Shown: positions 12,467 to 56,922 of the stretch, piece after piece
How positions within the stretch are numbered: the stretch's first letter is position 1
Layout of the letters: each line of letters begins with the position of its first letter
Origin: Longimicrobiales bacterium
Lineage (GTDB): Bacteria > Gemmatimonadota > Gemmatimonadetes > Longimicrobiales > Gaopeijiaceae
Direction: 5' to 3'
DNA length: 64,000 bases
NCBI GenBank assembly: GCA_965229435.1
Contig: CBDDJE010000005.1
Span: 32,628-96,627 of the forward strand
The notes under the pieces: model-generated
Told to the model about the DNA's origin: nothing
What the model saw: only the letters and a program-made list of their open reading frames with translations
Databases searched by the model: none
Program-made: the position numbers and the translations under genes

Positions 12467-13195
12467 TCAACGCGGCAAACGACGTAGCCCTTCGGCTGCC
12501 GCTTCGTTTCCTCTCTCTGCGGCCTGGCCGTACCAGAACCGGGCCTGCTCCGCGCTCGCATCGACCCCCCATCCCCGTTCGAATGCCTCTCCCAGGCGGA
12601 GGGCAGGGATGGCGTCACCTGCCCGCGCCGCCCGCGACCACCACCGGATTGCTGCTGGCGGATTCTCGTCAACACCCCGGCCGTCCCGATACATGTTGCC
12701 GATGTTGTGGACCGCCAGGACGTGGCCACGACGTGCCGCGCGTCGATACCACCGCATGGCCTCGAGGTAGTCGACAGCCACACCCAGGCCCTCGTCGTAT
12801 GCCGTGCCCATGAGGAACGCCGCTTCCACGTCGCCGGCCGCGGCGAGGTCGCGAATGGTCGGGAGCAGTTCGGCGCCGAGGGCACGGGCCCGGGCCTCGT
12901 CACGGGGGAAGGTCATTCGGCCTCGGGAATGGACTCGCGCGATCCACATTCGGGCCAGGACGGCGCCTCGGTCCGCGGCCGCCCCTTCGAGGAGGCGCCG
13001 TGCTTCGTCGTCGTCCACCCGACCGGCGACTCCAGTGTACAGGTCGATGGCCCGGAGAAGGTCGGCGCTAGCCGTGGTCTCGACCCCGGCAGGGAGGCGA
13101 GTGGGCATCTGCGCCTCGGCGGCAACCGGTGTGGTGGCCATGGCGGTAGCGAGGAGGGTGGCAGAGAGGAGACTTCCCCGGAACGCGCGCCCCAC
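12467..13195 (-). CDS. Sel1-like repeat (SLR/TPR-like) protein, secreted.
   Basis: Signal peptide. Repeated G.A...LG.MY..G.GV..D...A..W(Y/F)..AA..G motifs (Sel1 repeats) occur three or four times. Confidence 0.75.
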   Translation of the reverse strand: MGRAFRGSLLSATLLATAMATTPVAAEAQMPTRLPAGVETTASADLLRAIDLYTGVAGRVDDDEARRLLEGAAADRGAVLARMWIARVHSRGRMTFPRDEARARALGAELLPTIRDLAAAGDVEAAFLMGTAYDEGLGVAVDYLEAMRWYRRAARRGHVLAVHNIGNMYRDGRGVDENPPAAIRWWSRAARAGDAIPALRLGEAFERGWGVDASAEQARFWYGQAAERGNEAAAEGLRRLPR

Positions 13196-13197
13196 GG

Positions 13198-14439
13198 TCA
13201 GCGATCCACGCCCACGGACTGCGGCCCGATGTCCGCCAACGAGGGCGTTCCCGTGGCTCGCATGGCGATCTCCAACTCCCGGGTCAGGATCTGCAGCGCT
13301 CTTTCGACACCCTCCTGGCCGAACGCACCCAGACCCCAGAGGTAGGGGCGTCCTACCGCCACCGCGGTAGCGCCACGGGCGATCCCCTTGAAGAGATCCG
13401 TTCCACGGCGGAAGCCGCTGTCGACGATGACCGGCATTCGCCCCCCTACCGCTTCCGCCACCTCCGGGAGCGCGTCGATGGTGGCCCGTCCGTCGCCCTC
13501 GGCGCGCCCTCCGTGGTTGGACACCCAGACCGCATCGATTCCGTGACGGACGGCGAGGTGGGCATCCTCGGCGGTGACCAGCCCCTTCACGATGATCTTC
13601 TGGTCGGTGATGTCCCGCAGCCGACCGATGTAGTCCCAGGTCATCGCCGACCCCGCCGACCCGTCGGGTGCTCCCCGAGGGAGGCCCCGGAGCATGGGCT
13701 TCACGGGGTCGGCTCGCCCGCCCGCTCGATGGCAGCTCGCACAGTCACGGTCGTCGGCGCGGCGGTAGCGCTCGAGCGTCAGTCGGTTCCCGGTGCCACC
13801 TGTGAGGTCGACGGTGAGGACGAGGACCGGGCACCCGGCGTCGACCGTCCGCTGGACCAGGGCGACGTTGCTCTCCCAGTTCGACCGGGCGTAGAGCTGG
13901 TACCAGACGGGCTCGCCCCGAGCCTCGTTGACCTCCTCCACCGCCGTGGAGCTCACCGTGGAGAGAGTCTGGAGGTGATTCCGAGCCGCGGCCGCCCTCG
14001 CCGTGGCGAGCTCCCCATCCGCGTGGAACGCCCGCTGACTCCCGCACGGCGCCACCAAGAGGGGGGTGGGCCACTCCCGGCCGAACAGGTTCACCGCCGT
14101 GTCGAGCTCGGAAACGTCTACCAGACGGCGGGCGCGGAGGTACATCCGCTGGAGGGCCGCTCGATTGTTCTCGTAGGTCTCCTCGCCGTCCACGCCCGTC
14201 ATGATGTAGCCATAGTGGGCAGTGGGAACCTTCTCAGCGGCGACTCGCTGGAGGTCGAAGATGTCCAGCGCCTGCGATGCCGAGTCCACCAGATCGTCGA
14301 AGGTCCGCCGTGGCGCCTCCTGGGCGATGACGGGCTCGAGACCCGCGAGTCCACCGGCCGAAGCCAGGAGAGGGCTGGCGGCCAGCCAGCGGAGGAAGTC
14401 GCGGCGACGAACGTCCCTGCGGATCTCGGGCAGCGGCAT
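13198..14439 (-). CDS. Tat-exported FMN-dependent alpha-hydroxy-acid dehydrogenase/oxidase family protein (LldD/glycolate oxidase/MftD-like).
   Basis: The twin-arginine motif RRRDFLRW plus hydrophobic segment precedes a TIM-barrel FMN enzyme with its signatures (WYQLY, VSNHGGR, VDSGFRRGTDLFKGIARGA). A variable-loop insertion contains CASCH (CxxCH). The gene sits 3 nt upstream of the Sel1 gene. Confidence 0.8.
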   Translation of the reverse strand: MPLPEIRRDVRRRDFLRWLAASPLLASAGGLAGLEPVIAQEAPRRTFDDLVDSASQALDIFDLQRVAAEKVPTAHYGYIMTGVDGEETYENNRAALQRMYLRARRLVDVSELDTAVNLFGREWPTPLLVAPCGSQRAFHADGELATARAAAARNHLQTLSTVSSTAVEEVNEARGEPVWYQLYARSNWESNVALVQRTVDAGCPVLVLTVDLTGGTGNRLTLERYRRADDRDCASCHRAGGRADPVKPMLRGLPRGAPDGSAGSAMTWDYIGRLRDITDQKIIVKGLVTAEDAHLAVRHGIDAVWVSNHGGRAEGDGRATIDALPEVAEAVGGRMPVIVDSGFRRGTDLFKGIARGATAVAVGRPYLWGLGAFGQEGVERALQILTRELEIAMRATGTPSLADIGPQSVGVDR

Positions 14440-14795
14440 CGATGACTCCGGGTGATGGATGTCGGTGGAGCCGCAGGGTGCGACCGGCCACCGTCCGGCG
14501 TCAACCGCCGGCCCCGCCACAGCGCTCATTCATGTCGGCAAGGCGACACTTTCGGTGCCGAAGATATCGAGGTGCCCCGTGTGGCACACAATATGCAAAG
14601 TTTAAGCTATTGAATATTGGACCGACAGTCGGAGTACGGGGCCGCGATCCCCGGCAAGCACGTTGGAGGCTGGTAGATGACGATGATACTGTTGGTCCCC
14701 GTATGGCTCATGACCGGGCTCGCGGCCTGGACGACCTTCATCCTTCTCGGCTTGCGGTTCGAGCCTGCGGCGGAGTCCTCGGTGCTGACCGAGGT

Positions 14796-15494
14796 CTACG
14801 TGAGGGCCTCGATGACGTCGCTTGCCGTCCTCACGTCGGGCCGAGCGCTGAGGAACTGAGCCACCACGCCGGTGGCGTTGGCCACGGCGAAGCTGATCCC
14901 GTTGAAGTTCCGCTCCGGCGGGACGCCGGGTATCGGGCGCGGGTAGGGTGAAGCCCGTAGAACGGGTCCCCTGGCCCCATGGACCACCGTGACGCCGTCA
15001 CGATCCGCCTCGGCATCCATCACCACGCCCACCACGCCGGGCAAGGACCCCGGATACCAGAGTTGGCCGTCGTGCTCGGCGGCCGAGACAATGATCGTCC
15101 CCGCCTCCACCGCCGCCTCGATGGCCGGTGCCAGTTCGATCTTCCGGAAGTCGTTGGGCGTTCCCAGGCTCAGATTCACCAGCCGCATCTTTCTGTCGAC
15201 GGCCCACCGAATGGCCGCGACGAGGTTGGCCACGGTGGTTGCCAGTCGTTTGTCGAAGACCTTCACCGCCCACAACTCGGCTGAAGGAGCCTTCTCGTGG
15301 ATGGCGGCCGCGGCAGCCGTCCCGTGGCCGAGGCGGTCCACGTAGTCGTCGGACTCCACGCCCTCCAGATCGATGCTCACGCCGCCGGCAATCCCCGGCA
15401 GATGGGGGTGGGGGACGTTCACGCCGCTGTCGACGACGGCGACGGTGATGATGTCGGTCGGGCCGGAAACTCCGGCCGCCTCTCCCGGGACCAT
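14796..15494 (-). CDS. qhpE: Subtilisin-like serine peptidase QhpE, the leader peptidase for QhpC.
   Basis: Compact S8 fold (232 aa) with Asp (VVDSGVN), His (GHGTAAA) and Ser (NGISFA) motifs. The start shares a nucleotide with the qhpF stop. It lies in the qhp gene context. Confidence 0.75.
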   Translation of the reverse strand: MVPGEAAGVSGPTDIITVAVVDSGVNVPHPHLPGIAGGVSIDLEGVESDDYVDRLGHGTAAAAAIHEKAPSAELWAVKVFDKRLATTVANLVAAIRWAVDRKMRLVNLSLGTPNDFRKIELAPAIEAAVEAGTIIVSAAEHDGQLWYPGSLPGVVGVVMDAEADRDGVTVVHGARGPVLRASPYPRPIPGVPPERNFNGISFAVANATGVVAQFLSARPDVRTASDVIEALT

Positions 15495-17227
15495 CAGCCC
15501 TTCATCACATCGATGAAGAGGTCGCGGAACGCTCGACTCCGCTCCTCGAGGTCCCGGGGCGTACCATCCTCCTCGATGCGTCCGCCCGCGAGGACGACGA
15601 TCCGCTCCGCATGCCGGGCGAGATCCAGACGGTGAGTGATGAGGACGGTGGTCCGACCCCGCTGCAGCCGCTCATAACCCTGGAGGACCCCCGCCTCCGA
15701 CGACGGATCGAGAGCCCCGGTGGCTTCGTCCATGATCAGTACCGCCGGATCGGCGAGAAACGCGCGGGCGATGGCCAGTCTTTGACGCTCCCCTGCGGAC
15801 AGCTGTCGGCCACGTTCTCCCACGACGGTATCCGCACCTTCGGGCATGGACGCGACAAGGGCGTCGAGGCCGGCAGCGGAGAGTGCCTCGGCCACTTCGG
15901 CGTCCGTGGCTTCGGGGCGGGCATAACGCACGTTCTCCGCGACGGACGTATGGAAGATGAAGGGGGCCTGCTCGACGACGGTGACGTGGCGTCGCACGTC
16001 GTCCAAGCTCAGCCCCTTGAGGTCTTTGCCGTCCAGCAGGACCCGACCCTCGTCGGGGTCCACCTGACGCCCCAGAAGGTCCGCGATGGTGGACTTGCCG
16101 CTCCCGCTCGCTCCCACGATGGCTACCGTCTCACCGGCCTCGATGGTCAGATCGATGCCCTGGAGGCCTTCGTTGCCCCTGCCGAAGTCGAGATGGACGC
16201 CTTCGAGCTCGACTCGTCCACGACACTCGGAGAGCCTGACGGGGGAGAGGGACTCCACGACTTCCGGGGGCGTATCCAGTAACGTCTGGACACGGACCAG
16301 CGAGGCTCTTGCCGTGGCCAGGTTCGTGTAGATCCCCATGAGGCCCTGGATGGGGCCCATGAGCCGACTCTGGTAGGCCATGAACGCCACCAGCGTGCCG
16401 AAGGTCATGAGGCCGTTGATGACGCGGTAGCCTCCGTACACGAAGACGACCCCCGTCCCGGCGGACAGGAGAAGTCCGGGCAGCCCGCCCGCGAGGTACG
16501 TGAAGAGCCTCATGGAGAGGAGGGCGTCGACGAAGGAGTCGTTGCGACCCCGGAACCTCTCGATCTCCCGCCCCTGGGCGTTGGAGCCCACCACCGTCCG
16601 CATCCCCTGGATGCTCTCGATGAGAAAGGTGCCGATGTCGGCGCTCCGCTCCCGGAGCACGCGTACCCGATCCTCGAGTTGACGCCGATAGCGCATGAGG
16701 GCCCACAGCGAAGGCGGCAGCGTGGCGAGCCCCACGATGAAGAGCCGCCAGTCCAAGTACACGAGCATGGCGACGGTGCCGACGACGGCCACCACCTGGC
16801 CGAACCACGAGAGGGCGGCCTCGGCCGTGACGCGCTGGATCTCGCTGATGTCGCCGTTGATGCGCGAGACGATGTCACCAAGGGGGGTGCGGGCGTAGAA
16901 ACGGGGGGAGAGTCGCTGGAGATGGCCGTACAGCTCCAGGCGCATGTCGAAGAGGATGTCCGCCGAGACCTTGGTGTACCGCATGCCGCTGACGACGTTG
17001 AGCCCGAAGGCGATGACCGTTAGGCCGACGAAGACGGCGACGAGGATCAGGAGGAGTCGGAAATCTCCGCCGAGGACGGCGTCGTCGACGATGAGCTTCG
17101 ACAGATACGGCAAGACCAGCCCGAGAGCCGTACCCAGGAGGGACAGGACGACGACGGGGACGAGGGCGCCGATGTACGGACGGACGTAGCCCAGGGCACG
17201 GCGAAAATGCGGATCGAGTAGTGTCAT
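15494..17227 (-). CDS. qhpF: ABC transporter, fused permease plus ATPase (peptide-exporter type), QhpF.
   Basis: Six TM segments at the N-terminus. Walker A (GASGSGKST), ABC signature (LSAGERQRLAIARA) and Walker B (LIMDEATGALD) are all present. It lies in the qhp gene context. Confidence 0.8.
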   Translation of the reverse strand: MTLLDPHFRRALGYVRPYIGALVPVVVLSLLGTALGLVLPYLSKLIVDDAVLGGDFRLLLILVAVFVGLTVIAFGLNVVSGMRYTKVSADILFDMRLELYGHLQRLSPRFYARTPLGDIVSRINGDISEIQRVTAEAALSWFGQVVAVVGTVAMLVYLDWRLFIVGLATLPPSLWALMRYRRQLEDRVRVLRERSADIGTFLIESIQGMRTVVGSNAQGREIERFRGRNDSFVDALLSMRLFTYLAGGLPGLLLSAGTGVVFVYGGYRVINGLMTFGTLVAFMAYQSRLMGPIQGLMGIYTNLATARASLVRVQTLLDTPPEVVESLSPVRLSECRGRVELEGVHLDFGRGNEGLQGIDLTIEAGETVAIVGASGSGKSTIADLLGRQVDPDEGRVLLDGKDLKGLSLDDVRRHVTVVEQAPFIFHTSVAENVRYARPEATDAEVAEALSAAGLDALVASMPEGADTVVGERGRQLSAGERQRLAIARAFLADPAVLIMDEATGALDPSSEAGVLQGYERLQRGRTTVLITHRLDLARHAERIVVLAGGRIEEDGTPRDLEERSRAFRDLFIDVMKG

Positions 17228-17278
17228 GTCAGCGACTGCTACTCGCCGACCGCGTCGACGTTCGGTACGTGACGGCGG

Positions 17279-18370
17279 CTACCGGTCCCCGGGCACGATG
17301 GCGACGCCCAACATGTCCTCGTCGAAGGTCACCGTCCGCATGAGCTCGAAGGTGTCGACGTCATACACGTCGATGGTGTTGCCGGCCCGGAAGATGAAGA
17401 GCCGCTCGCCGTCGGCACTCACATGCAGACTCATGCGGGGACGGCCCTCGAAGGGCTGCTTGCGCGCGACGCGGCGGCCGTCGAGGTCGAACTCCCAGAA
17501 CTCGTAGCGGCCGATCTCGGTGTACAGCGCGTACGCCTTGGTCCGGTCGGGCGACAGGGTGAATGAACCGACCGGCTCCGATGGCCCCAGGGTGTAGAAC
17601 TCCACCTCCTGATCTGCCAGCCGCACCTCGGCGATTCCCATCATCGATCGGTTCTGGATGGGGTCGCGCATGCGGTACAGGCCCGTGGCGACCCCGTTGG
17701 CGTCGTACGTCCCCGGCACCACACCGAAGCTGGAACGGCCCAGGCCCGGCTCCAGGGGTTGGGAGATCTCCCAACGGTCGATCTCCTCATAGCTGTCCGC
17801 GTCGACGGCGATGATGTCCTCGACGAAGAAGTAGAGGGTCTCGCCGTCGGGCGAGTAACGCATGCCCACGCCTCGGTCCCGGGCTTCGTCGTCGGGCCAT
17901 GGGATGGTGTCGGTGACCTGCTCGGTCGTCAGGTCGTACTCCAGGATGAAGGGTCCTTCCACGCTGTAGCGATCGATGTGTTTCGTGTAGCGCTTCACGG
18001 TGAGGAGCACGCGCTCATTGGACGGGTGGGGTGCGACGCCGTTGATGCGGACCGTCACGCTGTCCTGCGAGAGGGTGATCTCCTGGATGGGCTCGCCCGC
18101 AGCCAGATCGACGATCTCCATGCGCTGCCCTGAGGCCTCGCTCACGTAGAGCCTGGACCGATCTTCACTCACCTGGACGCCGGTGGGGATGAAGTTGTTC
18201 ATGGTGATCCGGTCCACCACTTCTTCGCTCGCCTCGTCCCACACCAGGAGGTCGTTGGTGTACGTGGCGATGTACCAGGTGGCCGTTTGACCCGAGGCGG
18301 AGGCAGGCAACAAAGCCACCCCCGAGACGAGGACGGTGAGGGTCGCGGCTACGGCGAGGAGGCGATTCAT
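17279..18370 (-). CDS. qhpB: QHNDH beta subunit (seven-bladed beta-propeller), QhpB.
   Basis: Signal peptide. The repeated-blade beta-rich sequence has a length and position consistent with QhpB, between qhpC and qhpF. Confidence 0.7.
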   Translation of the reverse strand: MNRLLAVAATLTVLVSGVALLPASASGQTATWYIATYTNDLLVWDEASEEVVDRITMNNFIPTGVQVSEDRSRLYVSEASGQRMEIVDLAAGEPIQEITLSQDSVTVRINGVAPHPSNERVLLTVKRYTKHIDRYSVEGPFILEYDLTTEQVTDTIPWPDDEARDRGVGMRYSPDGETLYFFVEDIIAVDADSYEEIDRWEISQPLEPGLGRSSFGVVPGTYDANGVATGLYRMRDPIQNRSMMGIAEVRLADQEVEFYTLGPSEPVGSFTLSPDRTKAYALYTEIGRYEFWEFDLDGRRVARKQPFEGRPRMSLHVSADGERLFIFRAGNTIDVYDVDTFELMRTVTFDEDMLGVAIVPGDR

Positions 18371-18454
18371 CGGGCTGAGCGTCGTCGTCGTTCCAGGGGG
18401 TAGTCGATCCAGGGCGGAGTCGATCCGAGCGAGGTCGATCCTGAGGGAAGCGAT

Positions 18455-18841
18455 CTAGGGGAAGATGAGGTCGAGCTTGCGCCAGTCCTTCTGGGCCGAG
18501 GCGCACTTGCCGGTCCAGTCCTGCGCGTGGTTGAGCTGGTCGGGGACGTGGGCCGGCCAGAAGCACGAGAGGTGGCAGTCGAAGATGTCGCGCTCCACGG
18601 GCTGGCAGAGGCCGGCGGTCCCGCCCTGGTTGTCCACTTCCCATCCGGGTGCGAAGACGAGAGAGCATCCCAGGGGGAAGTGGGGCCCGTTCTCCTCGTG
18701 AGGGGGCGTGCGGAGACCCACGACATCCATGTCGTCATGAGCGTCCGTATCGCCGGCCTTCCTGGCGTCCAGTGCCCCTTCGTGCTCGACCCACGCCTGG
18801 ATGCGGGCCGCCTTCTGATTGATTGGCTTGAGGTGTTTCAT
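18455..18841 (-). CDS. qhpC: QHNDH gamma-subunit precursor QhpC (leader peptide plus Cys/Trp-rich core that gets thioether cross-links and the cysteine tryptophylquinone cofactor).
   Basis: Core ...GCSLVFAPGWEVDNQGGTAGLCQPVERDIFDCHLSCFWPAHVPDQ...DWRKLDLIFP. My recollection is that this matches conserved QhpC blocks (GWEVD, LCQP.E, C.WPA.V, DWRKL..FP). The ATG overlaps the qhpD stop (ATGA). An alternative internal start is at 18730. Confidence 0.8.
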   Translation of the reverse strand: MKHLKPINQKAARIQAWVEHEGALDARKAGDTDAHDDMDVVGLRTPPHEENGPHFPLGCSLVFAPGWEVDNQGGTAGLCQPVERDIFDCHLSCFWPAHVPDQLNHAQDWTGKCASAQKDWRKLDLIFP

Positions 18842-20310
18842 GCGTCGAATCGCTCCAGGAAGGCGGGGTTCTTCTCAGCGAGGGTGCCGTAGATCTCGAG
18901 ACAGGTGTGGGTCCAGCTACGGACCCAGGTGCAGTAGTGCAGGTTGGCGTGGGACGAGGTGCCGTACTGGACGTGGGCTTCGTGGTAGCAGCCCCCGGAG
19001 CAGATGGGTCGGGCCCAGCAGGTGTGGCAGTCGGTTTTCGAGGCGATGTGGTGGTCGACGAGGAACTTGCCCTGTTTCTCGCGGTCCACGCCGTCGACGA
19101 CGTTGCCGATGGTATGCTCTTCGGAGCCTGCGAAGCGGTGACAGAGCGCAACCTCGCCGTCGGTGGCGACGCCCATGAGGCCGAGGCCCGCGCCGCATCC
19201 GTAGGCCTTGCTCACACCCTTGTGGATCTCCTCGATGGTGTCTTTCACGTTGGAGAAGCCGTGGTGCTCGTCCCGGAGAGCACACTCGAGCCACTCGGCG
19301 GCCAACTCCTCGAACTGACGGAGCATGGAGTCCTTCGACTCAGGGGTGATGGCGTAGTCCCGGTGGTCCTGTGTAGTGACCGGGGCCAGCCCGACCTCCC
19401 AGAAGCCGATCTCCTCGGTGAGATGCCGGAAGATCTCCAGGACGTTCATGTTCTTCTGGGTCAGCGTCACCCGTGCACCGATGGGCCGCGAACGATGCCG
19501 GCCCAGAAGCTCCTTGATCTTCGGAAGCACCACGTCGTAGGTGCCTTTGCCGTTGTGGAAGACCCGGAGGCCGTCCTGCACGGGCTTCGGTCCGTCGATG
19601 GAGATGGTGACACCGATGTGGTTGTCGGCCAGCCACTCGATGATCTCGGGCTTCAGCAGCGTCGCGTTCGTCGTCAGGCTGAACTCGATGCGCTTGCCCT
19701 CCTCGGCGGCGCGCCGCCGCCCGTACGCCACCGTCTTCTTCAGAACCGGGAAGTTCAACAGGGTCTCACCACCGAAGAAGGTGAGGTGGGCGACGGGCTG
19801 GTCCCTGTTCTCAGCCAGGAGGAAGTCCACACTCTCTTCGGCGGTCTCGTCGCTCATGAACTTGGGCTGCTTGCCGAACTTCGTGTCGACGATCTTGTCC
19901 TCGCCATACTCGTAGCAGTAGGTGCAGGCCAGGTTGCACTTGTTGGTGACGTTCAGGACCATCGTGTTCAGCGGGAAGTCCGCCGGCGGCAGGTCGTTGA
20001 CCACCTGTTGCTTGGGTGCGTCCACGTCGCCGATGGCCCGGATCTCGGTGAGTTCGGCCAAAGTGCCCAGGATGCGGTCCACGCCGAAGCGATCACCGAG
20101 GTCGTCGACCAACGCGTCGTGCTCCGCCGGACCCTCTGCCAGGAGGTCGAGGATGGCGCATGCGGCCTCGTCCATCCTGAAGATGCCGGCGGACGGGACC
20201 ATGTAGAGGAAGCGGGCGCCGTGGGCTTCGAAGGGGTGAAACTCCCTCAGAGCCAGAAGGGGACTCGCCCCCGTGGTATCGGGTGCTCCGGTGGCAACGG
20301 GTGGGTTCAT
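18838..20310 (-). CDS. qhpD: Radical-SAM/SPASM-domain peptide maturase QhpD (forms Cys-to-Asp/Glu thioethers in QhpC).
   Basis: CNLACTYC matches the CxxxCxxC rSAM motif. Clustered C-terminal cysteines (CGAG...CHR, CHTCWARPICSGGCYHE, CTWVRSWTHTC) match a SPASM domain. About 490 aa. ATGA overlaps with both neighbours. Confidence 0.9.
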   Translation of the reverse strand: MNPPVATGAPDTTGASPLLALREFHPFEAHGARFLYMVPSAGIFRMDEAACAILDLLAEGPAEHDALVDDLGDRFGVDRILGTLAELTEIRAIGDVDAPKQQVVNDLPPADFPLNTMVLNVTNKCNLACTYCYEYGEDKIVDTKFGKQPKFMSDETAEESVDFLLAENRDQPVAHLTFFGGETLLNFPVLKKTVAYGRRRAAEEGKRIEFSLTTNATLLKPEIIEWLADNHIGVTISIDGPKPVQDGLRVFHNGKGTYDVVLPKIKELLGRHRSRPIGARVTLTQKNMNVLEIFRHLTEEIGFWEVGLAPVTTQDHRDYAITPESKDSMLRQFEELAAEWLECALRDEHHGFSNVKDTIEEIHKGVSKAYGCGAGLGLMGVATDGEVALCHRFAGSEEHTIGNVVDGVDREKQGKFLVDHHIASKTDCHTCWARPICSGGCYHEAHVQYGTSSHANLHYCTWVRSWTHTCLEIYGTLAEKNPAFLERFDA

Positions 20311-22151
20311 CGAGGTGCCTCGGAGGTTGAGCCGGGGTGTGTGGGACCTGAGGGTGTGGAGCCAGGAGCGTCCACGCCCGTCGAGCCCAGTCCGGTCGAG
20401 CCGTCACCCACGGGTCGCCGCCCGTCGTCGATGGGACGCCACGGGTCGAACTTGATGTAGAGAGGCACCGTCACCACCAGGTGACCCCGGGCGGTGAGGG
20501 GCTCGCCGTCGGAGCGGGCGTGTGTCGCCACGACCCAAACGTCTCCGATGTTGTTCCGGAGGCCCGAGCGGTCGGGGTTGGGTCCGTCCAGAGCCGGAAC
20601 GAAGACGCCGTCCTGACGCATGGTACCGATGAACTCGATGTCATCGTCGCCGAACACGGCCGCGTATTCCTCGACGTGCCACGAGACGTCGACCCGTCCG
20701 AGCTCGAGGTCGTCCTCGGTGTCGGGCTCGCCGTCGGCGCCGTTGTCGTAGCCGACGGCGTCGAAGATCTCGTACTCCTTTGGAAAGGCCGCTCCACCCA
20801 CTCTGGCCATCCCCGTCACCGGCGTGACGGCGATGCGATCGAGGCCGTCGTGGACCACCACCAGCTCGGGCCGGACGACGCCGAACGCAAAGAGATCGCG
20901 GTGTCCCGTGAGTGCGTCGTCGTCCACGGCAAGGCGGACGCGGTAGGCGTCGGCCGATCGTGACTCCACCGATACGACCTCGACGCCGGCTCCGAAGTCC
21001 AGCTCATCCGTGGCGGACCCGGACGTGGGGAGATTCTCGCCATAGAGCGTGACGGAGGTGGTCTCACCGACCTGAAGCGCCTTGGGGTGGACGCCCGACA
21101 GAACCGGGGCACCCGACACCCTGCGGAGTTCCACGTCCGGGCCCATCTCCTCGTAATCCCCCCTGAACCAGCGTCCGAACATCTCCTGCTGGTTCCGCTC
21201 GACGAACATGACCTCGCGGAGCTCGCTGTCGGAGCCCGGATTGGAGCGACCACGCCACTGGTAGCCGGTGTAGACCATGGCCTGGCCCGAGCGCTCGACC
21301 CGCTCGCCCGACTCGGCGTACACGTAGCTCGCCGTGGAGGTGAACGCGTCGGGATCGTTCGCCACCGGGGAGATCGTCAGCGTCCCGTAGAGGGGGCCCT
21401 TGCCGACTTCATACCCCGACAGGGCCCACTCGCCGGCGAGGCGAGGTGACCGCTTCGTCGTCTTCCAAGCGGTCCATTCGGCCGTCTCCAGGGGAAAGGC
21501 CTCGGAGAGGTGATCGATGGCCCGATCCATGGGATGGCGGGGATCCCCTTCTTCCGGTGGTGGACCAGCCCGTCGGAAAGCCTGGAAGTCCACCAGGGGA
21601 TAGAGAGCGCGGTGCGTTGCGAGGAGCAGGCCCCACTCGTCTCTCGTTCGGCGCTGGGTGATGACCCGACCCATGGAGTGGCACTGGATGCACGTGAACT
21701 CCACGTCCGAATCGCCCGGGTAGTCGTACGGATAGCCGATGCTCCGGGCCTCCACCTCGAAGTGGCCTGGCCGCAGCTCCTCCGGAGCCAACCCCTGCTC
21801 GTCAGCCAGGTAGCGGGCGATTTCGCGAGCGTCATCCTGGTTCAGGCGGGCGCCGTGGAGGGCGACCATACGGCGGATGGACGTCTGCCATCCCTCCGGC
21901 GTCTTGCGGAGGTACGAGATCCGCGACATCCGCCCCTCGTCGTCCACCGTGTGGCACCGCGAACAGCGGTCGATGACGGTCTGGTTCTGGACGGCGTAGC
22001 CTTCTGGGATCATCGACGGTGCCGGGTCCGCCGATTGTTGGGGGATCCAGGCCAGGAGAACGCCGACGAGGGCGGTGCCGGCGAGGACGAGCGGGAAGCG
22101 TGCAGGAGACGCCATCGACCCCGGGGTGTTGGAGTGAACGTGCGAAGACAT
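20307..22151 (-). CDS. qhpA: QHNDH alpha subunit (dihaem cytochrome c), QhpA. The true start is possibly at 22115.
   Basis: Signal peptide. Two CxxCH motifs (CSRCH, CIQCH) sit in the N-terminal dihaem domain, followed by large beta-rich domains. The stop overlaps the qhpD start. Confidence 0.8.
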   Translation of the reverse strand: MSSHVHSNTPGSMASPARFPLVLAGTALVGVLLAWIPQQSADPAPSMIPEGYAVQNQTVIDRCSRCHTVDDEGRMSRISYLRKTPEGWQTSIRRMVALHGARLNQDDAREIARYLADEQGLAPEELRPGHFEVEARSIGYPYDYPGDSDVEFTCIQCHSMGRVITQRRTRDEWGLLLATHRALYPLVDFQAFRRAGPPPEEGDPRHPMDRAIDHLSEAFPLETAEWTAWKTTKRSPRLAGEWALSGYEVGKGPLYGTLTISPVANDPDAFTSTASYVYAESGERVERSGQAMVYTGYQWRGRSNPGSDSELREVMFVERNQQEMFGRWFRGDYEEMGPDVELRRVSGAPVLSGVHPKALQVGETTSVTLYGENLPTSGSATDELDFGAGVEVVSVESRSADAYRVRLAVDDDALTGHRDLFAFGVVRPELVVVHDGLDRIAVTPVTGMARVGGAAFPKEYEIFDAVGYDNGADGEPDTEDDLELGRVDVSWHVEEYAAVFGDDDIEFIGTMRQDGVFVPALDGPNPDRSGLRNNIGDVWVVATHARSDGEPLTARGHLVVTVPLYIKFDPWRPIDDGRRPVGDGSTGLGSTGVDAPGSTPSGPTHPGSTSEAPR

Positions 22152-22224
22152 CCTGCGTCGGTGACGGCGACTTCGCCAGGGGCGTGGATCGATTCCCGGA
22201 CGGCGTCACCGTGAGGCCGGGGAG

Positions 22225-23826
22225 CTAGGATCCTCGCCCCTTCTTCCCTTCGCGGGTCTCAGCGAACCCCAGGAGGCCGGCGGCGAAAGCGGTCGAGAGC
22301 GCCGTGAGGTAGTCGGGGAGGGTGACGGGGGGCGCTACGGCGTTGTAGGCGGCCCAGCCGTCCGCGACATCGTCGTGGCGGGGGGCGATGTCCAACAGGG
22401 CCCGCAGGTCCACGCCCCTCACGAAACGAAGCCCGCTTGGTGCGAGGTCGCTGGCCACGTGATCCTGGAGGACGATCCTGTGCCCTTCGATGGCGGGGCG
22501 CTCGACGACGCGGACGGTGGGGCCGGTGACGGCGTCCAGGGTGTCGCGGGCCTTGAGGGATTCGAAGGCGGCTCGGACGTCGGACTCGGGGACTTCGGGC
22601 TCGAGGCGGTCGGGGTCGGCAACGGGGGCAGAGGGGGTCGACGAGGGGTGCTTCGCCCCGGTGTCGGTCTGTGTGGCGGCGGCCAACCGTGCCGCGGCTG
22701 CGCGTTCGGTCCAGTAGGGTGTCCCGTACACCTCCGCCCCCGCGGCGAAAAAGTCGGCCGAGACGGCGCGATACCGCTGGTAGACCGTGGCTTCTCTGCG
22801 ATGGAAGAAGTCCAGGGCCGTGGAGGCCATGCCGGGGTCCACCAGCGCGGTGTGGACCACGATGCCGGCGAGCCAGCCCGACGAGAGGGCTTTCTTCACG
22901 CCGAACGAGGACAGGGGATCGATGAAGGAACCCGCATCCCCCGCGAGGACGAGGCCGGGCTCGGCGAACCGTTCGGACGTATACAAGGATGCCGGGCACG
23001 CCCACGCCGACCCCACGGGCTCGGCTCCCTCTCGAAGGGGCCCGATCCGATCCGTCTTGTCCAGCTCTGCGTCGAGGATGTCGTCCACCGACGCGCCTTC
23101 CAGGTCGGCGGTGCGTTGGTCGATCATCGTCGTGAGGCATCGCATGTCGGGTCCGAGGGGCACGGACCACGCCCACCCGACGTCATAGCTCTCCACGACC
23201 GTATGATGCGACTCGTCGTCGTTCCATCCTCCCGGTCTGCGCCAGCGACGGACGACGGCGAGGGTCGTCGTGCTCCGGTCGGGCAGTCGATTGGGGCGGG
23301 CAAGGACGCCCTTCCGGCCAGTGGCGTCGACGACCCATCGGGCCCTCAGGACGATGGCCTCTCCGTCGTGCTCGCAGTGGAGTGCCCATGCCCCGGCGTC
23401 GGGGTTCGTGTCCTGGCCTGTAGACGCCTCGCGCGATCCGGATCGGCACACGGCGTCGCGAAAGACGATGACGCCCGCCTCTTCGGCGACGGAGACCAGC
23501 ACGCGCTCGAGTGAGATCCGGTCGGCGTGGAAGCCCTCTGCCTCCGAAGCGAAGTCTTCACGCCTGGGCGGGCTGCCCGCCCAGTGCACCAGATTCCCCC
23601 GATTGGGGTGGAAGGCCGCGGCGTCGACGGCTGCCAGAGCTCCAAGCTCATCCAGGACGCGTCGGGCAGACGGGGGGATCGACTCGGCCAGCGCCGCTGC
23701 CGGGGGCGTCGTCGGTCGGACCAGAGCCACCCGGTGGGCCCTCCGCGCCAGGAGAATGGCCGCCGCACACCCTGCGGGGCCCGCGCCCAGCACCACCACA
23801 TCGAGGGATCGGGCGTCGTCACTCAT
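22225..23826 (-). CDS. qhpG: FAD-dependent monooxygenase QhpG (Trp hydroxylase for CTQ biogenesis).
   Basis: The Rossmann dinucleotide motif VVVLGAGPAGCAAA is at the N-terminus. Length and context fit a flavin monooxygenase. The start is taken at MSDDARSL rather than the ORF's 5' extension. Confidence 0.75.
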   Translation of the reverse strand: MSDDARSLDVVVLGAGPAGCAAAILLARRAHRVALVRPTTPPAAALAESIPPSARRVLDELGALAAVDAAAFHPNRGNLVHWAGSPPRREDFASEAEGFHADRISLERVLVSVAEEAGVIVFRDAVCRSGSREASTGQDTNPDAGAWALHCEHDGEAIVLRARWVVDATGRKGVLARPNRLPDRSTTTLAVVRRWRRPGGWNDDESHHTVVESYDVGWAWSVPLGPDMRCLTTMIDQRTADLEGASVDDILDAELDKTDRIGPLREGAEPVGSAWACPASLYTSERFAEPGLVLAGDAGSFIDPLSSFGVKKALSSGWLAGIVVHTALVDPGMASTALDFFHRREATVYQRYRAVSADFFAAGAEVYGTPYWTERAAAARLAAATQTDTGAKHPSSTPSAPVADPDRLEPEVPESDVRAAFESLKARDTLDAVTGPTVRVVERPAIEGHRIVLQDHVASDLAPSGLRFVRGVDLRALLDIAPRHDDVADGWAAYNAVAPPVTLPDYLTALSTAFAAGLLGFAETREGKKGRGS

Positions 23827-23891
23827 GGGGTTCGCTTGCCGCGGGGGATGGGCGGCGGGATGGTTAGGGACGTTCGGGACCAACCAAGAGG

Positions 23892-29398: not shown

Positions 29399-30649
29399 TT
29401 GGACTCGTCTTCTAAGCTGTCCCGCCGCGCGTGGATCACCACGGCTTCGGGGGTCGTGGCCGCGGGGCTGATCCGCACCCAGACCGATGCCATCCGACTG
29501 GACGCCCAGGAGACTCCGCCTCCTGACCCGACGAAGGTGCCGGGGCGCCTGGTCTCGACCGTGGGCCAGCGGGCGCCGGCAGAACGCCCCGAACGGCTCC
29601 TACGCGCTCAGGCCCTCTCGTCCTCGTCTCGGACTCCCCTCCACGAGCTCATGGGGACGATCACCCCCGCCGATCTCCACTTCGAAAGGCACCACGCCGG
29701 CATCCCCGACGTCCGGCTCGAGAACCATGAGCTTCTCGTCCACGGGATGGTCGACCGGCCCATGGTCTTCACCATGGCCGATCTCATGCGGTTTCCCCGG
29801 GTGTCCCGGATCCGATTCCTGGAATGCTCCGGCAACGGAGGGGGCATCTACAGCCGGGATCGGATGCCGACGGACGTTACGGTACAGGCCATCGACGGAC
29901 TCCTGAGTACCAGTGAGTGGACCGGGGTCCCGCTGTCCACGATTCTCCGGGAAGTGGGCGTCCGGGACGGCGCCAGTTGGATTCTCGCCGAGGGTAGCGA
30001 CTCCGCCGTGATGTCCCGGAGCGTGCCTCTCGGCCTCCTCGACGAGGCTCTTCTGGCCTACGGGCAGAACGGCGAGATGATCCGGCCGGAGCAGGGGTAC
30101 CCCCTCCGTCTGTTCATCCCGGGGCTCGAGGGCAATACGAACGTGAAGTGGCTTCGGCGCATCGAGGTCACGGACCAGCCGACCCATTCCCGGGACGAGA
30201 CGTCGCGCTACACCGACCCCCTCGGCGACGGGACGGCGAGGCAGTTCAGCCTGGTCATGGACGCGAAGTCGGTCATCACCTTCCCCTCCTACCCCTACGT
30301 CCTTCCTGAGGAGGGGTGGTGGGAGATTCGGGGACTGGCATGGTCCGGGAGGGGGCGCATCACACGAGTCGAGGTCAGCACCGACGGTGGGCGGAACTGG
30401 ACGCCCGCAGAGCTCCAGGGCCCGATCTTCTCCAAGTCGACGGTACGTTTCCGCCACCTCTTCGAGTGGAATGGCCGGGACACACTCATCCTGAGCCGCG
30501 CCACCGACGAGACGGGCTACGTCCAGCCCACGGTCCAGCAACTATGGGAGGCCCGGGGCCCCCAGACGTCGTACCACCAGAATCATCAGCGGGCGTGGAA
30601 GATCGCCCGAACCGGCGAGGTGACGTTCGGCCTGGGAGACTTGGTATGA
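29399..30649 (+). CDS. sorA: Sulfite dehydrogenase/sulfite oxidase-family molybdopterin subunit (SorA/SoxC-like), Tat-exported.
   Basis: Tat motif (SRRAWIT plus hydrophobic segment). The Moco-binding Cys block (FLECSGNGG) is followed by a C-terminal dimerisation, Ig-like domain. Confidence 0.8.
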   Translation: MDSSSKLSRRAWITTASGVVAAGLIRTQTDAIRLDAQETPPPDPTKVPGRLVSTVGQRAPAERPERLLRAQALSSSSRTPLHELMGTITPADLHFERHHAGIPDVRLENHELLVHGMVDRPMVFTMADLMRFPRVSRIRFLECSGNGGGIYSRDRMPTDVTVQAIDGLLSTSEWTGVPLSTILREVGVRDGASWILAEGSDSAVMSRSVPLGLLDEALLAYGQNGEMIRPEQGYPLRLFIPGLEGNTNVKWLRRIEVTDQPTHSRDETSRYTDPLGDGTARQFSLVMDAKSVITFPSYPYVLPEEGWWEIRGLAWSGRGRITRVEVSTDGGRNWTPAELQGPIFSKSTVRFRHLFEWNGRDTLILSRATDETGYVQPTVQQLWEARGPQTSYHQNHQRAWKIARTGEVTFGLGDLV

Positions 30650-31272
30650 GGGGGGCGATATCCCTCGGCGCGGCGACTGTTCTCGTCCTGGCGTCCTGTA
30701 GTTCGGGCGAACGGGCGCCTCCGTCGGCCTCTACCGCATCGGGAAGCGACGCGGCGGGCGTGGCCGGTACGGCCGGTGATCTGCCGGTGAACGCTCCGAA
30801 CCTCTTCGGTTTCGGGAACGAGGCGTCCGAGGCGCGCATCGCCATGTGGGACATCGACGTTCGACCGGACGGCACCGGCCTTCCGCCAGGGAGCGGCACG
30901 GTCGCCGAAGGGCGGGACGTGTACAACCTCCAGTGCGTCGCCTGTCACGGGCCCACCGGGACCGAGGGCCCCAACGACCGTCTGGTGGGCACGGAGCCGT
31001 GGGTGGACTACCCCTCCGGCCGGGCCATCGGCAACTACTGGCCCTACGCCACGACGCTCTATGACTACATCCGGAAGGCCATGCCCCAGCTCACGCCGGG
31101 GAGCCTGACGGAGAACGAGGTCTACGCGGTCATCGCGTATCTTCTCTACCTCAATGAGTTGGTTCCGGAAGACGCCGTCATGAACGCTGAGACGCTACCC
31201 CGGGTCGAGATGCCGGCCCGGGATCGTTTCGTTGTGGATGATCGAACCGGTGGAGGAGGACCGATTCGCTGA
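30646..31272 (+). CDS. sorB: Monohaem c-type cytochrome lipoprotein, the electron-acceptor partner of SorA (SorB-like).
   Basis: ATG overlaps the sorA stop (ATGA). Lipobox LVLASC. A single CVACH haem motif with downstream Met ligand candidates. Confidence 0.7.
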   Translation: MRGAISLGAATVLVLASCSSGERAPPSASTASGSDAAGVAGTAGDLPVNAPNLFGFGNEASEARIAMWDIDVRPDGTGLPPGSGTVAEGRDVYNLQCVACHGPTGTEGPNDRLVGTEPWVDYPSGRAIGNYWPYATTLYDYIRKAMPQLTPGSLTENEVYAVIAYLLYLNELVPEDAVMNAETLPRVEMPARDRFVVDDRTGGGGPIR

Positions 31273-54124: not shown

Positions 54125-55250
54125 CGGGCCTTCCGAGGAAGCGCGCGGGGCGGCGACGCCACCCCGCGTCGCCGCCTTCATTTCCGGTCATGGCTTCGGT
54201 CACGCCGCGCGAGCCTCGGCTGTTCTCGCTCGCCTTCATGCGACGACGGGTTGTCGGGTGGAGCTCTTCACGACGGCGCCCGGTTGGTTCTTCGAGGAGT
54301 CCATCGCCGGGATCTTCCGGTATCACCAGGAGACCGTGGACGTCGGGTTCCGTCAGGCGTCGGCCCTCGACTATGACCTGGAGGCCACCGTCGCGGCGCT
54401 GGGGGACATCCTGCCCTTCGGCCGGCGGGTCGAGCGCTTGGCCAAGGAGGTGGCGAAGGCCGACTGTCGCGCCGTGCTCTGCGACATCTCGCCCCTCGGC
54501 GTGGCCGTCGCCGAGGCGGCGGGGCTTCCATCAATCGTCGTCGAGAACTTCACCTGGGGATGGTTGTACGAGCCGTTGCACGTCCGTGCCCCCGAGCTGG
54601 AGGCCTTCGGGAGGGAGCTCGACGACTGGCTGATGCAGGCAGACGTCCATCTCCAGGCTCGACCGGTGTGTCTTCGACTCGAGTCGGCGGAACTCGTCGA
54701 CCCCATCAGCAGGGCGCCCCGGCGTCCGCGGGAGGAGACGAGGGCGGCGTTGGGCGTGGGCGAGGACGAACGGCTCGTCGTCGTCACCATGGGCGGCTAC
54801 GGCGAGTCCTTGCCCTTTCTGCCTCGCCTCCGGGAACGCCGCGGGGTCCGATTCCTCGTCACCGGCGCCGACGCCACGGGTGAGGACGGCAATCTCCTCC
54901 TCTTCGACAACAACACGCCCCTCTTCATGCCCGACCTCATGCGTGCGGCGGACGCGCTGGTCGCGAAGCTCGGATACGGGACCGTCTCCGAGGTCTGGCG
55001 TGAGGGCCTCCCGTTCCTCGGTGTCACCCGGGCGGACTTTCGGGAGATGGAGGCACTGGAAGCGTTCGCTCGGGCAGAGCTCCGCGGACGGGTGATCGCA
55101 CCCGGCGTCTTCAAGAGTGGAGCATGGATCGAGGAGCTCGACGCGCTGCTGGGCACGGAGCGCAGACCCCGGGAGGGCGGAGGCGCGAGCCGGGTGGCTG
55201 AGGCCCTGGCGGAGGTCGCTGGGCTCAGCCCCCCATCAGGGGGTCGGTGA
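54117..55250 (+). CDS. GT-B-fold glycosyltransferase (GT1/GT28-like), putative.
   Basis: The ATG overlaps the creatininase stop by 8 nt. The N-terminal Gly-rich motif ([15 protein letters not shown]) and two-Rossmann-domain length are consistent with MurG/MGT-like enzymes. The family assignment is tentative. Confidence 0.5.
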
Positions 55251-56922
55251 CCCCCAACACGTGGACCGCGATGAGACCGAGCGTTCCCACGACCAACAGA
55301 TAGTAGATCGTGGGAAGGATGGTCTTGCGCAGCGTCGACCCTTCCTTTCCCAGGAGCCCCACGGTGGCCGACGCCGCCACCACGTTATGGATGGCGATCA
55401 TGTTGCCGGCGGCAGCGCCGACGGCCTGAAGAGCGACGATCATCACGGTGGACATGGCCAGCCGCTCCGCGACGCCGTATTGGAAGGCCGAGAACATGAG
55501 GTTGCTCACCGTGTTGGAGCCGGCGATGAAGGCGCCGAGAGCCCCCGTCATGGGTGCGAAGAAGGGCCATACGGCGCCGACGTTTCCGGCTACCCACTCC
55601 GCCATGGCCAGGGGCATGGAGAGGAAGCCCGCAGCGTTCACGTCGGAGTTGATGTAGACCCGGACCATGGGCACGGTGAATACGAGGACGATCCCCGCGC
55701 CCACGAGGACGCTGCCCGACGACCTGAAGGCGGCCGCGAGGTCGCGGCCGCTCATCCGGTGGAGGGCCGCGGCGAAGAAGACCACCAGGAGGAGGATGAA
55801 GCCCGGCAAGTAGAGGGGTGTGGTGGTGGCGACGATGTCGGAGCCCAAGATGTTCGCCCACGAGATAGCCGGCGCACGGAGCCAGTCGCCGACGGGCAGG
55901 GAGGGGAGCCGGGTCAACACCAGGAGAAGACCGAGGAGTCCATAGGGGGCCCACGCCGACGCGGCGGACACACCCCGACCCTCGGATACGTCGGCGAGTT
56001 CGTCCTCCAGGCCGCTGATCCACTCCGGCTGCCATGCCGAGCGCGGAGGGAAGTCCCAATGGTCCGTGGGCAGGAGCCAGCCCTGCCGCGCAACCGCCAC
56101 GACGATGGCCAACCCCACGGGCGCCCCCAGGAGTGACGGGAACTCCGGGCCGAGGAACGTCCCGAAGAGGACGTACGGCACCGTGAAGGCGAGTCCGCCG
56201 AGGAGTGTGAATGGCAGAATGGAGAGCCCCTCTGTCCACGAGCGATTGGCGCCGAAGAAGCGGGTGAGCATGACCACCATCCAGGTGGGCATGAGCACGC
56301 CTGCGGTCGCGTGGAGGAGGACGGCCTTCGCCGTGACCAGCCGAAGGTAGTCCACGCGCGTGAGGTCCGCCGACGCGAGGGCAGCGGCGAAAGCGTCGCC
56401 CCCCAACCCACCGTCGACGCCGACGAGGACGGGCGTGCCCACGGCCCCGAAGGTGACGGCCGTGCTCTGGATCATCATGCCGAGCATGACCGCACCGGCC
56501 GCCGGGAAACCGAGGGCCACCAGGAGGGGAGCGGCGACGGCCGCCGGCGTCCCGAAACCCGCCGCACCCTCGATGAACGATCCGAACAGCCAGGCGACGA
56601 TGACGACCTGGACCCGCCGATCGTCGCTGACGCCGCTGAACGACCTCCGGATGGCCGCGACGCCCCCGGAGCGCTCCAACGTGTGGAGGAGGAGGATCGC
56701 CCCGAAGATGATGAAGAGCAGGTCGAAGGTGAGGAACAGCCCCTGGACCGACGCTGCGGCGATCCGGGAAGGGGTCATTCCCCAGGCGCCGAAGGCCACG
56801 GCTACCGCCGCGATGTAGGCGGCCGGCATGGCGTGTTTGGCGGGAATCCGGAACCCGACGAGAAGGACGCCCCCGAGGGCGATGGGGAAGAGGGCGAGTG
56901 CCGCCTGCATGCCGAGGCTCAT
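55225..56922 (-). CDS. lctP: L-lactate permease (LctP/LldP family).
   Basis: 565 aa polytopic protein with LctP-like blocks (...[22 protein letters not shown]..., ...[18 protein letters not shown]..., ...[19 protein letters not shown]...). Confidence 0.8.

Follow-up and report, generated by a model that had tools for sequence, protein, structure and literature searches.

In a 64,000-nucleotide stretch of contig CBDDJE010000005.1 from a Longimicrobiales bacterium (Gemmatimonadota), referred to here as the window, a gene on the minus strand encodes a 413-residue homologue of the flavin mononucleotide (FMN)-dependent 2-hydroxy-acid dehydrogenases. Comparison of the predicted protein with its relatives suggests, at a probability of about 0.5, that this enzyme is exported by the twin-arginine translocation (Tat) pathway and carries one haem c on loop 4 of its barrel, with putative ligation by two histidines. 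The parts of this proposal differ in strength. That the product is an exported FMN 2-hydroxy-acid dehydrogenase is very likely, judging from its family and its conserved leader; that haem is covalently attached to it is predicted at roughly even odds; and the narrower idea of a natural single-domain flavocytochrome c, in which haem c would have been grafted onto the lid of an already folded, Tat-exported triosephosphate isomerase (TIM)-barrel FMN dehydrogenase, we put slightly below even. A first-pass annotation of the same DNA had described the protein as a flavocytochrome c built on the LldD scaffold; of this description the exported enzyme with a CxxCH motif conserved across its clade stands, and the haem stays a prediction from the sequence.

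The open reading frame (ORF) at 13198-14439 proposed in that annotation proved to be real and lies on the minus strand, and the VWYQLY and VSNHGGR blocks by which it had been recognized are both present. The protein begins MPLPEIRRDVRRRDFLRW, and an identical protein (P0001) exists in public data. It matches the Pfam family FMN_dh (PF01070) with 353.3 bits (E = 1.7e-105; curated cut-off 24.9 bits) over profile positions 1-348 of 350 and thus represents the FMN-dependent 2-hydroxy-acid oxidase/dehydrogenase family over its full length; its only other Pfam match is a weak one to IMPDH. An AlphaFold2 (AF2) model with a predicted local distance difference test (pLDDT) score of 81.3 gave glycolate oxidase, HAO1 and mandelate oxidase as top Foldseek matches (E ~1e-30, template-modelling scores 0.72-0.91), and the modelled fold is a (beta/alpha)8 barrel as in glycolate oxidase. 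The catalytic set is complete: Y78, Y183, D211, R219, K285, H309 and R312 align with Y40, Y146, D174, R181, K241, H265 and R268 of Aerococcus lactate oxidase (LOX), and all seven are invariant among 43 aligned homologues. By structure coordinates, Tyr78 maps to residue 143 of 1fcb and residue 24 of 1al7. The corresponding features are the following:

13198-14439, minus strand: gene of the FMN-dependent 2-hydroxy-acid dehydrogenase homologue, 413-residue precursor (ORF, Pfam FMN_dh, fold match)
14206-14208, minus strand: Tyr78, the substrate-carboxylate tyrosine, equal to LOX Y40, glycolate oxidase (GOX) Y24 and flavocytochrome b2 (Fcb2) Y143 (alignment; structure coordinates of 1fcb and 1al7)
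13585-13587, minus strand: Lys285, the flavin N1/O2 lysine, LOX K241 (alignment, invariance)
13504-13521, minus strand: SNHGGR block with the catalytic His309 and Arg312 (aligned to LOX H265/R268; invariant)

Below the family level, the protein stays far from the curated enzymes. The NCBIfam equivalog models scored 190.8 bits for LldD (cut-off 550), 214 for PRK11197 (376), 190.8 for L-lactate oxidase (645.5) and 191.7 for MftD (470.85), and by these scores the protein belongs to the FMN_dh family but is none of the named enzymes LldD, L-lactate oxidase and MftD. Its best matches in the Protein Data Bank (PDB) reach ~35% identity, and all of them are devoid of a CxxCH motif. In the substrate pocket, V162 sits where lactate oxidase has the bulky Y124, a position that we take to be equivalent to Trp108 of glycolate oxidase, and this gives a hint that substrates may exceed glycolate in size. 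In this lineage, the residues that bind the carboxylate are retained.

The N-terminus of the protein forms a leader of the twin-arginine type, with two features:

14323-14439, minus strand: twin-arginine-type signal peptide, residues 1-39, predicted cleavage between VIA and QE (sequence, conservation, codon bias)
14389-14406, minus strand: RRDFLR twin-arginine core, R12-R17 (conserved; sub-threshold match to Pfam TAT_signal)

The order of R12-R13-D-F-L-R, an uncharged stretch from W18 to L34 and V-I-A39 in front of Q40 is the layout of a Tat substrate, namely a twin-arginine motif, a moderately hydrophobic stretch and an AxA site or lipobox. All 120 closest homologues (66-100% identity) keep RR-x-F-L-R-W-L-A-A-S-P. 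In a non-redundant clade set of 78 CxxCH proteins, made at 75% identity, the RRxFL...SP leader was found in 73, and the remaining five look like truncated gene calls; R12 and R13 are conserved to 95-96% and P23 to 95%. In some distant members, a lipobox (LPGC) replaces the AxA site, and these variants independently indicate an extracytoplasmic location of the predicted proteins. At the DNA level, the leader codons of 16 relatives showed 87, 71 and 196 substitutions at codon positions 1, 2 and 3, respectively; as the substitutions concentrate at third positions, the leader region is translated and under purifying selection. The earlier suggestion of a twin-arginine signal, and hence of periplasmic export, is thus borne out at the level of prediction by a leader whose RRDFLR core, uncharged stretch and VIA-Q junction are kept across the clade. 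The accompanying statement that the alpha-hydroxy-acid family is normally cytoplasmic or membrane-peripheral needs to be qualified, since Tat leaders also occur in a CxxCH-less sister clade and in the Photorhabdus enzyme PauLDH.

The position of the start codon bears directly on the leader. A ribosome-binding site precedes the ATG at 14439:

14446-14449, minus strand: GGAG ribosome-binding site, separated from this start codon by 6 nt; homologues share that Met

A further in-frame ATG at 14529 makes a longer protein possible, but the start at 14439 is favoured because the homologues begin with MPLPEIR, at the same Met. In the downstream direction, the next Met is M80, and a start there would lose the conserved H75 and Y78. 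As the leader is under purifying selection and an M80 start would cost these two residues, the true start does not lie downstream of the arginine pair, which had been named as one way in which the proposal could fail.

The second element of the proposal is located in the lid of the active site, accompanied by a histidine outside of it:

13729-13743, minus strand: CASCH (C233-H237), candidate haem c attachment motif (read from sequence; conserved)
13636-13809, minus strand: loop 4 (residues 211-268), which forms the lid of the active site between strand 4 and helix 4 (alignment with lactate oxidase; pLDDT)
14215-14217, minus strand: His75, clade-specific histidine and candidate distal haem ligand (comparison of clade and cytoplasmic sequences)

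By composition, a CxxCH is expected ~0.001 times per 413-residue protein. A single CxxCH in one genome is unremarkable, and it is the conservation that exceeds chance: the motif occurs at the same position in 118 of the 120 closest homologues, with differing middle residues, and in the same alignment columns across all 78 non-redundant clade members. Within these 78 sequences the two middle residues are hypervariable (54 different pairs), and C, C and H are fixed. Such hypervariable middle residues are typical of haem c motifs, whereas redox-active CxxC motifs usually keep theirs. Compared with Aerococcus lactate oxidase, 10 residues are inserted at the motif. In total, the loop has ~56 residues compared to ~53 in cytoplasmic relatives, so that its earlier description as expanded is correct for the insertion and hardly so for the total length.

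Leader and motif also go together over large evolutionary distances. A search of 1.8 billion cluster representatives recovered relatives with both down to ~40% identity, and among the distant relatives (~40-56% identity, several phyla) nearly all proteins with CxxCH also have a twin-arginine leader. Among the full-length representatives of 50% clusters, 36 have both the arginine pair and CxxCH, 20 the arginine pair only, six CxxCH only and 63 neither (Fisher p = 4e-11), and several of the six with CxxCH only are visibly truncated or frameshifted gene models. In a neighbour-joining tree calculated from the core alone, leader and loop 4 being excluded, and searched for bipartitions to judge monophyly, all 76 CxxCH sequences fell on one side of a single branch. 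Six sequences without CxxCH are placed there as well (P0137, P0145, P0157, P0164, P0170 and P0223), and those loops that were looked at are deleted or degenerate. Because all CxxCH proteins share one bipartition, the motif arose once and has been retained thereafter. Relatives of the protein are encoded in more than 590 species genomes. The best 80 of these come from Gemmatimonadota, Acidobacteriota, Alpha-, Beta- and Gammaproteobacteria and Rokubacteria; among them is the cultured Bradyrhizobium lablabi, whose homologue in strain SZCCT0422 (NZ_JAFCJK010000003.1, locus L059, 7914-9200) has CGSCH as its motif. The first-pass annotation had stated that orthologues lacking both Tat motif and CxxCH would mark the motif as an accident of one lineage; instead, both are kept throughout a monophyletic clade that spans several phyla.

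This co-occurrence and conservation across phyla leave very little room for an ordinary cytoplasmic or membrane-peripheral lactate or glycolate oxidase in which the arginine pair and CxxCH arose by chance or from a mis-called start. About one in 1000 proteins of this size would contain a CxxCH by chance and the match of the leader to the TAT_signal model is sub-threshold, both of which would suit such an enzyme; however, the leader codons are under purifying selection, downstream starts would remove conserved residues, and the protein stays below the cut-offs of the equivalog models for LldD and lactate oxidase. We consider this explanation extremely improbable.

Apart from the motif itself, a small number of residues set the CxxCH clade apart. 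H75, three residues before Tyr78, is present in 75 of 75 aligned clade sequences and in none of 52 cytoplasmic relatives. Further positions fixed only in the clade are R105, R273 (Trp in cytoplasmic relatives), F373 and N218, of which R105 and R273 could pair with haem propionates. If a haem is bound, H237 and H75 are probably its two axial ligands. Since H75 lies close to Tyr78, the counterpart of Fcb2 Tyr143, a haem held by H237 and H75 would sit roughly where the haem of flavocytochrome b2 docks; Tyr143 of Fcb2 is reportedly situated at the flavin-haem interface, in contact with a haem propionate. In the AF2 model, pLDDT is low over residues 71-90 (around H75), 212-240 (the CxxCH segment) and 310-316 and higher over 241-270. 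Low-confidence segments of this kind would fit regions shaped by missing cofactors, which we regard as weak evidence.

From these data we infer the following course of events, which extends from export and haem attachment to ligands, substrate and electron acceptor. The precursor would bind FMN and fold in the cytoplasm, and cytoplasmic binding of FMN would sufficiently explain the use of the Tat pathway, to which the RRDFLR leader would direct the protein. The leader would be cut after A39, or the protein would be lipid-anchored instead in the lineages with an LPGC lipobox. Within the periplasm, the flexible lid formed by loop 4 could offer C233-x-x-C236-H237 to the cytochrome c maturation machinery, and one haem c would be attached, with H237 as the proximal and H75 as the likely distal ligand. 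An (S)-2-hydroxy acid would then be oxidized to the 2-oxo acid at the FMN, with His309 as the base, together with Arg312, Arg219, Tyr78, Tyr183, Lys285 and Asp211, and the two electrons would leave one at a time via the lid haem to a soluble periplasmic acceptor (a cytochrome c or cupredoxin) and on to a terminal oxidase. Judging from its genes, the host appears to make c-type cytochromes, as the window encodes QhpA with two CxxCH motifs and a SorB-like lipoprotein with CVACH.

Several observations weigh against this proposal. With respect to export, the leader reaches 13.2 bits (E = 0.09) with the Pfam model TAT_signal (PF10518) and the P0104 leader 20.5 bits (E = 4e-4), both below the cut-off of 22.7, and the NCBIfam Tat profile TIGR01409 gave no match to the leader. 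Two of the 120 closest homologues depart from the motif, as P0002 (92% identity) reads CESCN and P0118 is without most of loop 4; these two and the six loop variants in the tree could be natural motif losses or assembly errors. No cytochrome c family in Pfam or NCBIfam matches the protein, which, with its motif in loop 4 of a TIM barrel, would stand outside all known cytochrome c families, and burying the haem would be left to a loop of ~56 residues and the top of the barrel. Met249, a possible alternative haem ligand, is conserved to only 67% and was rejected as the distal ligand, H75 being preferred. The sister Tat clade has no adjacent cytochrome c gene in the neighbourhoods analysed, so that no 'Rosetta-stone' support comes from there. 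To our knowledge, the classical periplasmic redox enzymes pair a Tat-exported catalytic subunit with a separate, Sec-exported cytochrome c, and haem c on a Tat substrate is unusual; we also know of no documented case in which Ccm acts on an already folded protein. The window itself holds an example of the split layout, a SorA-like gene with a CVACH partner. The SorA-like molybdoenzyme (29399-30649, plus strand; Oxidored_molyb and Mo-co_dimer) has a twin-arginine-like leader, SRRAWITTASG. The gene for the CVACH protein (30646-31272, plus strand), which has the lipoprotein signal LVLASC, overlaps it by 4 nt. By its domains and leaders, the pair at 29399-31272 resembles sulfite dehydrogenases of the SorAB type, in which the catalytic subunit is exported by Tat and the cytochrome c by Sec.

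The main alternative is an exported FMN enzyme without haem, in which C233 and C236, with or without H237 and H75, form a disulfide, a redox-active dithiol or a Cys2His2-type metal site. A disulfide could stabilize or gate the lid, a dithiol could accept electrons from the flavin, and a metal could be loaded before Tat export; the flavin electrons would then pass directly to an external cytochrome c, quinone or O2. A disulfide, too, would be expected to be confined to exported members of the family, metal sites that are loaded in advance are often exported by Tat, and the two Cys and two His specific to the clade could in principle form such a site. The protein has no cytochrome fold, and the sister Tat clade manages without a CxxCH. 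According to PMC9670274, family members are active with artificial acceptors using FMN alone. What speaks for haem instead is, above all, the pattern at the motif itself, because a second Cys that is always followed by His, in combination with 54 different middle pairs, is the signature of haem c, while families with redox-active CxxC normally fix the middle residues. In addition, the adjacent C236 and H237 are badly placed for binding the same tetrahedral metal, the motif is unlike the Rieske motif (CxH...CxxH) or other known Cys2His2 cluster motifs, and a purely structural disulfide leaves the co-evolving H75, R105 and R273 unexplained. We consider a haem-free lid possible, at clearly less than even odds, and continue to favour attachment of a haem c.

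The sister Tat clade just mentioned comprises 119 proteins with a twin-arginine leader, mostly from marine Gammaproteobacteria. Its P0144 family in Gammaproteobacteria has a conserved upstream gene (L088 5234-5878, L089 5370-6008, L090 904-1542), which overlaps the flavoenzyme gene by 8 nt in L089 and L090 and lies ~120 nt away in L088. The product of ~213 residues has its own twin-arginine-like leader, no Pfam match and no CxxCH, and may be a partner subunit of the sister-clade enzyme.

The genes surrounding the flavoenzyme were compared to find out about its context. Neighbourhoods were obtained for eight homologues by exact look-up and for 72 genome loci with a gene caller based on GC content at third codon positions (GC3) and BLAST clustering. 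In the window, a complete qhpG-A-D-C-B-F-E set occupies 14796-23883 on the minus strand, and the flavoenzyme gene follows next on the same strand. The beta-subunit-like protein of this locus is very divergent (63.9 bits compared to a TIGR03907 cut-off of 223), and QhpE falls just below its own cut-off (164.6 compared to 165). The remaining features of the immediate surroundings are:

14440-14795, minus strand: gap of 356 nt to qhpE with a low-GC island at ~14550-14700, probably the promoter region of the flavoenzyme gene
12467-13195, minus strand: gene for a Sel1-repeat protein with a Sec-type signal, starting 2 nt after the stop codon of the flavoenzyme gene; same arrangement in L005-L007

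The gap, described before as AT-rich, measures 356 nt as stated, and within its island GC falls to 52-55% compared to ~70% elsewhere. The island holds TTGCATATTGTGTGCCACACGG, a partly palindromic TGTG...CACA element. A scan of the gap found no sigma-70-like or terminator-like site, although the consensus used may not suit Gemmatimonadota, and we regard the gap as probably the enzyme's own promoter region. On the other side, the Sel1-repeat gene is probably co-transcribed with the flavoenzyme gene, overlapping it by 4 nt in L007; the pairing is absent from other lineages, and the protein may be a lineage-specific partner or adaptor. One Longimicrobiales group has its homologue flanked by one or two genes for FKBP-type peptidyl-prolyl isomerases (L002 11282-12255; L003 9555-10004 and 11312-11740).

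The position next to qhp had led to the suggestion that the enzyme is linked to qhp peptide maturation, possibly in an MftD-like role on a ribosomally synthesized and post-translationally modified peptide (RiPP). The enzyme could in this case act on the QhpC peptide in the manner of MftD, where the same fold acts on a peptide-derived substrate, or could process the product of the quinohaemoprotein amine dehydrogenase. The location directly after qhpE on the same strand recurs in L005-L008, with gaps of just 54-96 nt in L005-L007. However, these four loci are the only ones among 87 in which qhp adjoins the flavoenzyme gene; they encode homologues of 77-78% identity, and the whole region around them is syntenic. 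No qhp genes are found nearby in L009 and L010 (74-77% identity), in Palauibacter (L001), in the FKBP-flanked L002-L004 or in the other phyla, and no neighbour family is conserved across the 72 loci, the commonest (FKBP) being present in 8. As the adjacency is confined to close Longimicrobiales relatives of at least 77% identity that are syntenic throughout and no neighbour is conserved, we rejected the functional link to qhp. In addition, the qhp locus already holds the full qhpGADCBFE set, the score with the MftD model is far under its cut-off, the Arg/Tyr set binding the carboxylate of free 2-hydroxy acids is intact, and the 356-nt gap with its low-GC island suggests separate transcription. 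A role in qhp function is thus highly unlikely, and the MftD-like RiPP role is abandoned with it. The enzyme looks like a stand-alone unit whose place after the qhp operon reflects local synteny and not shared function, and the lack of a conserved partner gene fits a self-sufficient enzyme. At most, the two enzymes share a theme, both being periplasmic dehydrogenases that feed cytochromes. A gene for an L-lactate permease (Lactate_perm, E = 3.7e-99) is located at 55225-56922 on the minus strand, ~41 kb from the flavoenzyme gene; because of this permease, uptake of lactate or glycolate into the cytoplasm is probable as well.

A full-text search of the literature yielded no paper on an FMN_dh enzyme that carries haem c, and there is neither a curated family model nor a solved structure for the CxxCH clade, whose public annotations are generic ('alpha-hydroxy acid oxidase' or '4-hydroxymandelate oxidase'). 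Export of FMN_dh enzymes is not new per se, given the sister Tat clade and the enzyme of PMC9670274. If haem were confirmed on a folded protein exported by Tat, both the architecture and the biogenesis route, Tat followed by Ccm/Ccs, would be new, and a Tat substrate that receives its haem after export would test what Ccm/Ccs accepts. Hundreds of soil and marine bacterial species would then carry such a flavocytochrome c. The spread of the clade suggests that aerobic respiratory chains receive electrons by an overlooked route, the oxidation of lactate-like acids in the periplasm. A compact natural FMN-haem c 2-hydroxy-acid dehydrogenase would also be a ready scaffold for lactate sensors with direct electron transfer, for which haem domains have been engineered onto lactate oxidase (PMC9915066, PMC8348568). 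Even if the motif were a disulfide or metal site, the clade would be a large set of exported FMN_dh enzymes that lack a specific annotation.

Among the known systems, the membrane-associated (S)-mandelate dehydrogenase (MDH) and LldD-type L-lactate dehydrogenases have the fold and catalytic set of the enzyme described here and are likewise dehydrogenases and not oxidases. Unlike it, they are made without a signal peptide, lie on the cytoplasmic side and deliver electrons to quinone. Loop 4 is the element of the family that is specialized for the electron acceptor and forms the membrane-binding segment in MDH. Position 133 is Gly in 61 of the 78 clade members, but also in 25 of 55 cytoplasmic relatives; its counterpart is presumably G81 of MDH. 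PauLDH of Photorhabdus australis, the one Tat-signal relative that has been characterized, comes closer with respect to export. It belongs to the same superfamily and, according to PMC9670274, is an FMN-dependent dehydrogenase with a predicted Tat signal that prefers (S)-2-hydroxyvalerate and is active when produced without its signal peptide; the same text holds that many FMN_dh family members are dehydrogenases rather than oxidases. It makes, as far as available, no mention of haem on the enzyme or of its periplasmic physiology. The comparison with PauLDH is one by description and not by sequence, and no Photorhabdus appeared among the cluster names or matches of the homology search seeded with P0144.

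With regard to haem c, the flavocytochromes c FccAB and PchCF are periplasmic flavoprotein dehydrogenases that pass electrons to haem c, as proposed here, but they use FAD instead of FMN, have unrelated folds and carry the haem on a separate subunit or domain. A review of cytochrome-carrying enzymes (PMC6472588) lists the FccAB and PchCF types and no FMN_dh enzyme with haem c. The sole precedent that we found for the combination of Tat and haem c is the Split-Soret cytochrome c, with a predicted twin-arginine signal and CxxCH haem c motifs (PMC4429474), an unrelated di-haem protein that is no flavoenzyme and whose Tat signal is likewise a prediction.

The closest parallel in function is flavocytochrome b2 (Saccharomyces cerevisiae CYB2, PDB 1FCB), which has the same FMN_dh catalytic domain and catalytic residues, although the sequences are distant (E ~1e-41). 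Its compartment, the mitochondrial intermembrane space, is topologically equal to the periplasm, and its relay from FMN via a bis-His haem to cytochrome c resembles the one proposed here. The two proteins differ in their targeting, which is mitochondrial import in flavocytochrome b2 and, as predicted, the bacterial Tat pathway in the enzyme of the window. They also differ in the haem: in flavocytochrome b2, a cytochrome b5 domain of its own at the N-terminus holds haem b non-covalently, whereas the bacterial protein has a signal peptide at its N-terminus and no cytochrome b5-type domain there, and its candidate haem would be covalently bound inside loop 4. If this is correct, the clade would have found a second, independent answer to the flavocytochrome b2 problem, with the haem placed within the catalytic domain itself and not on a mobile one.

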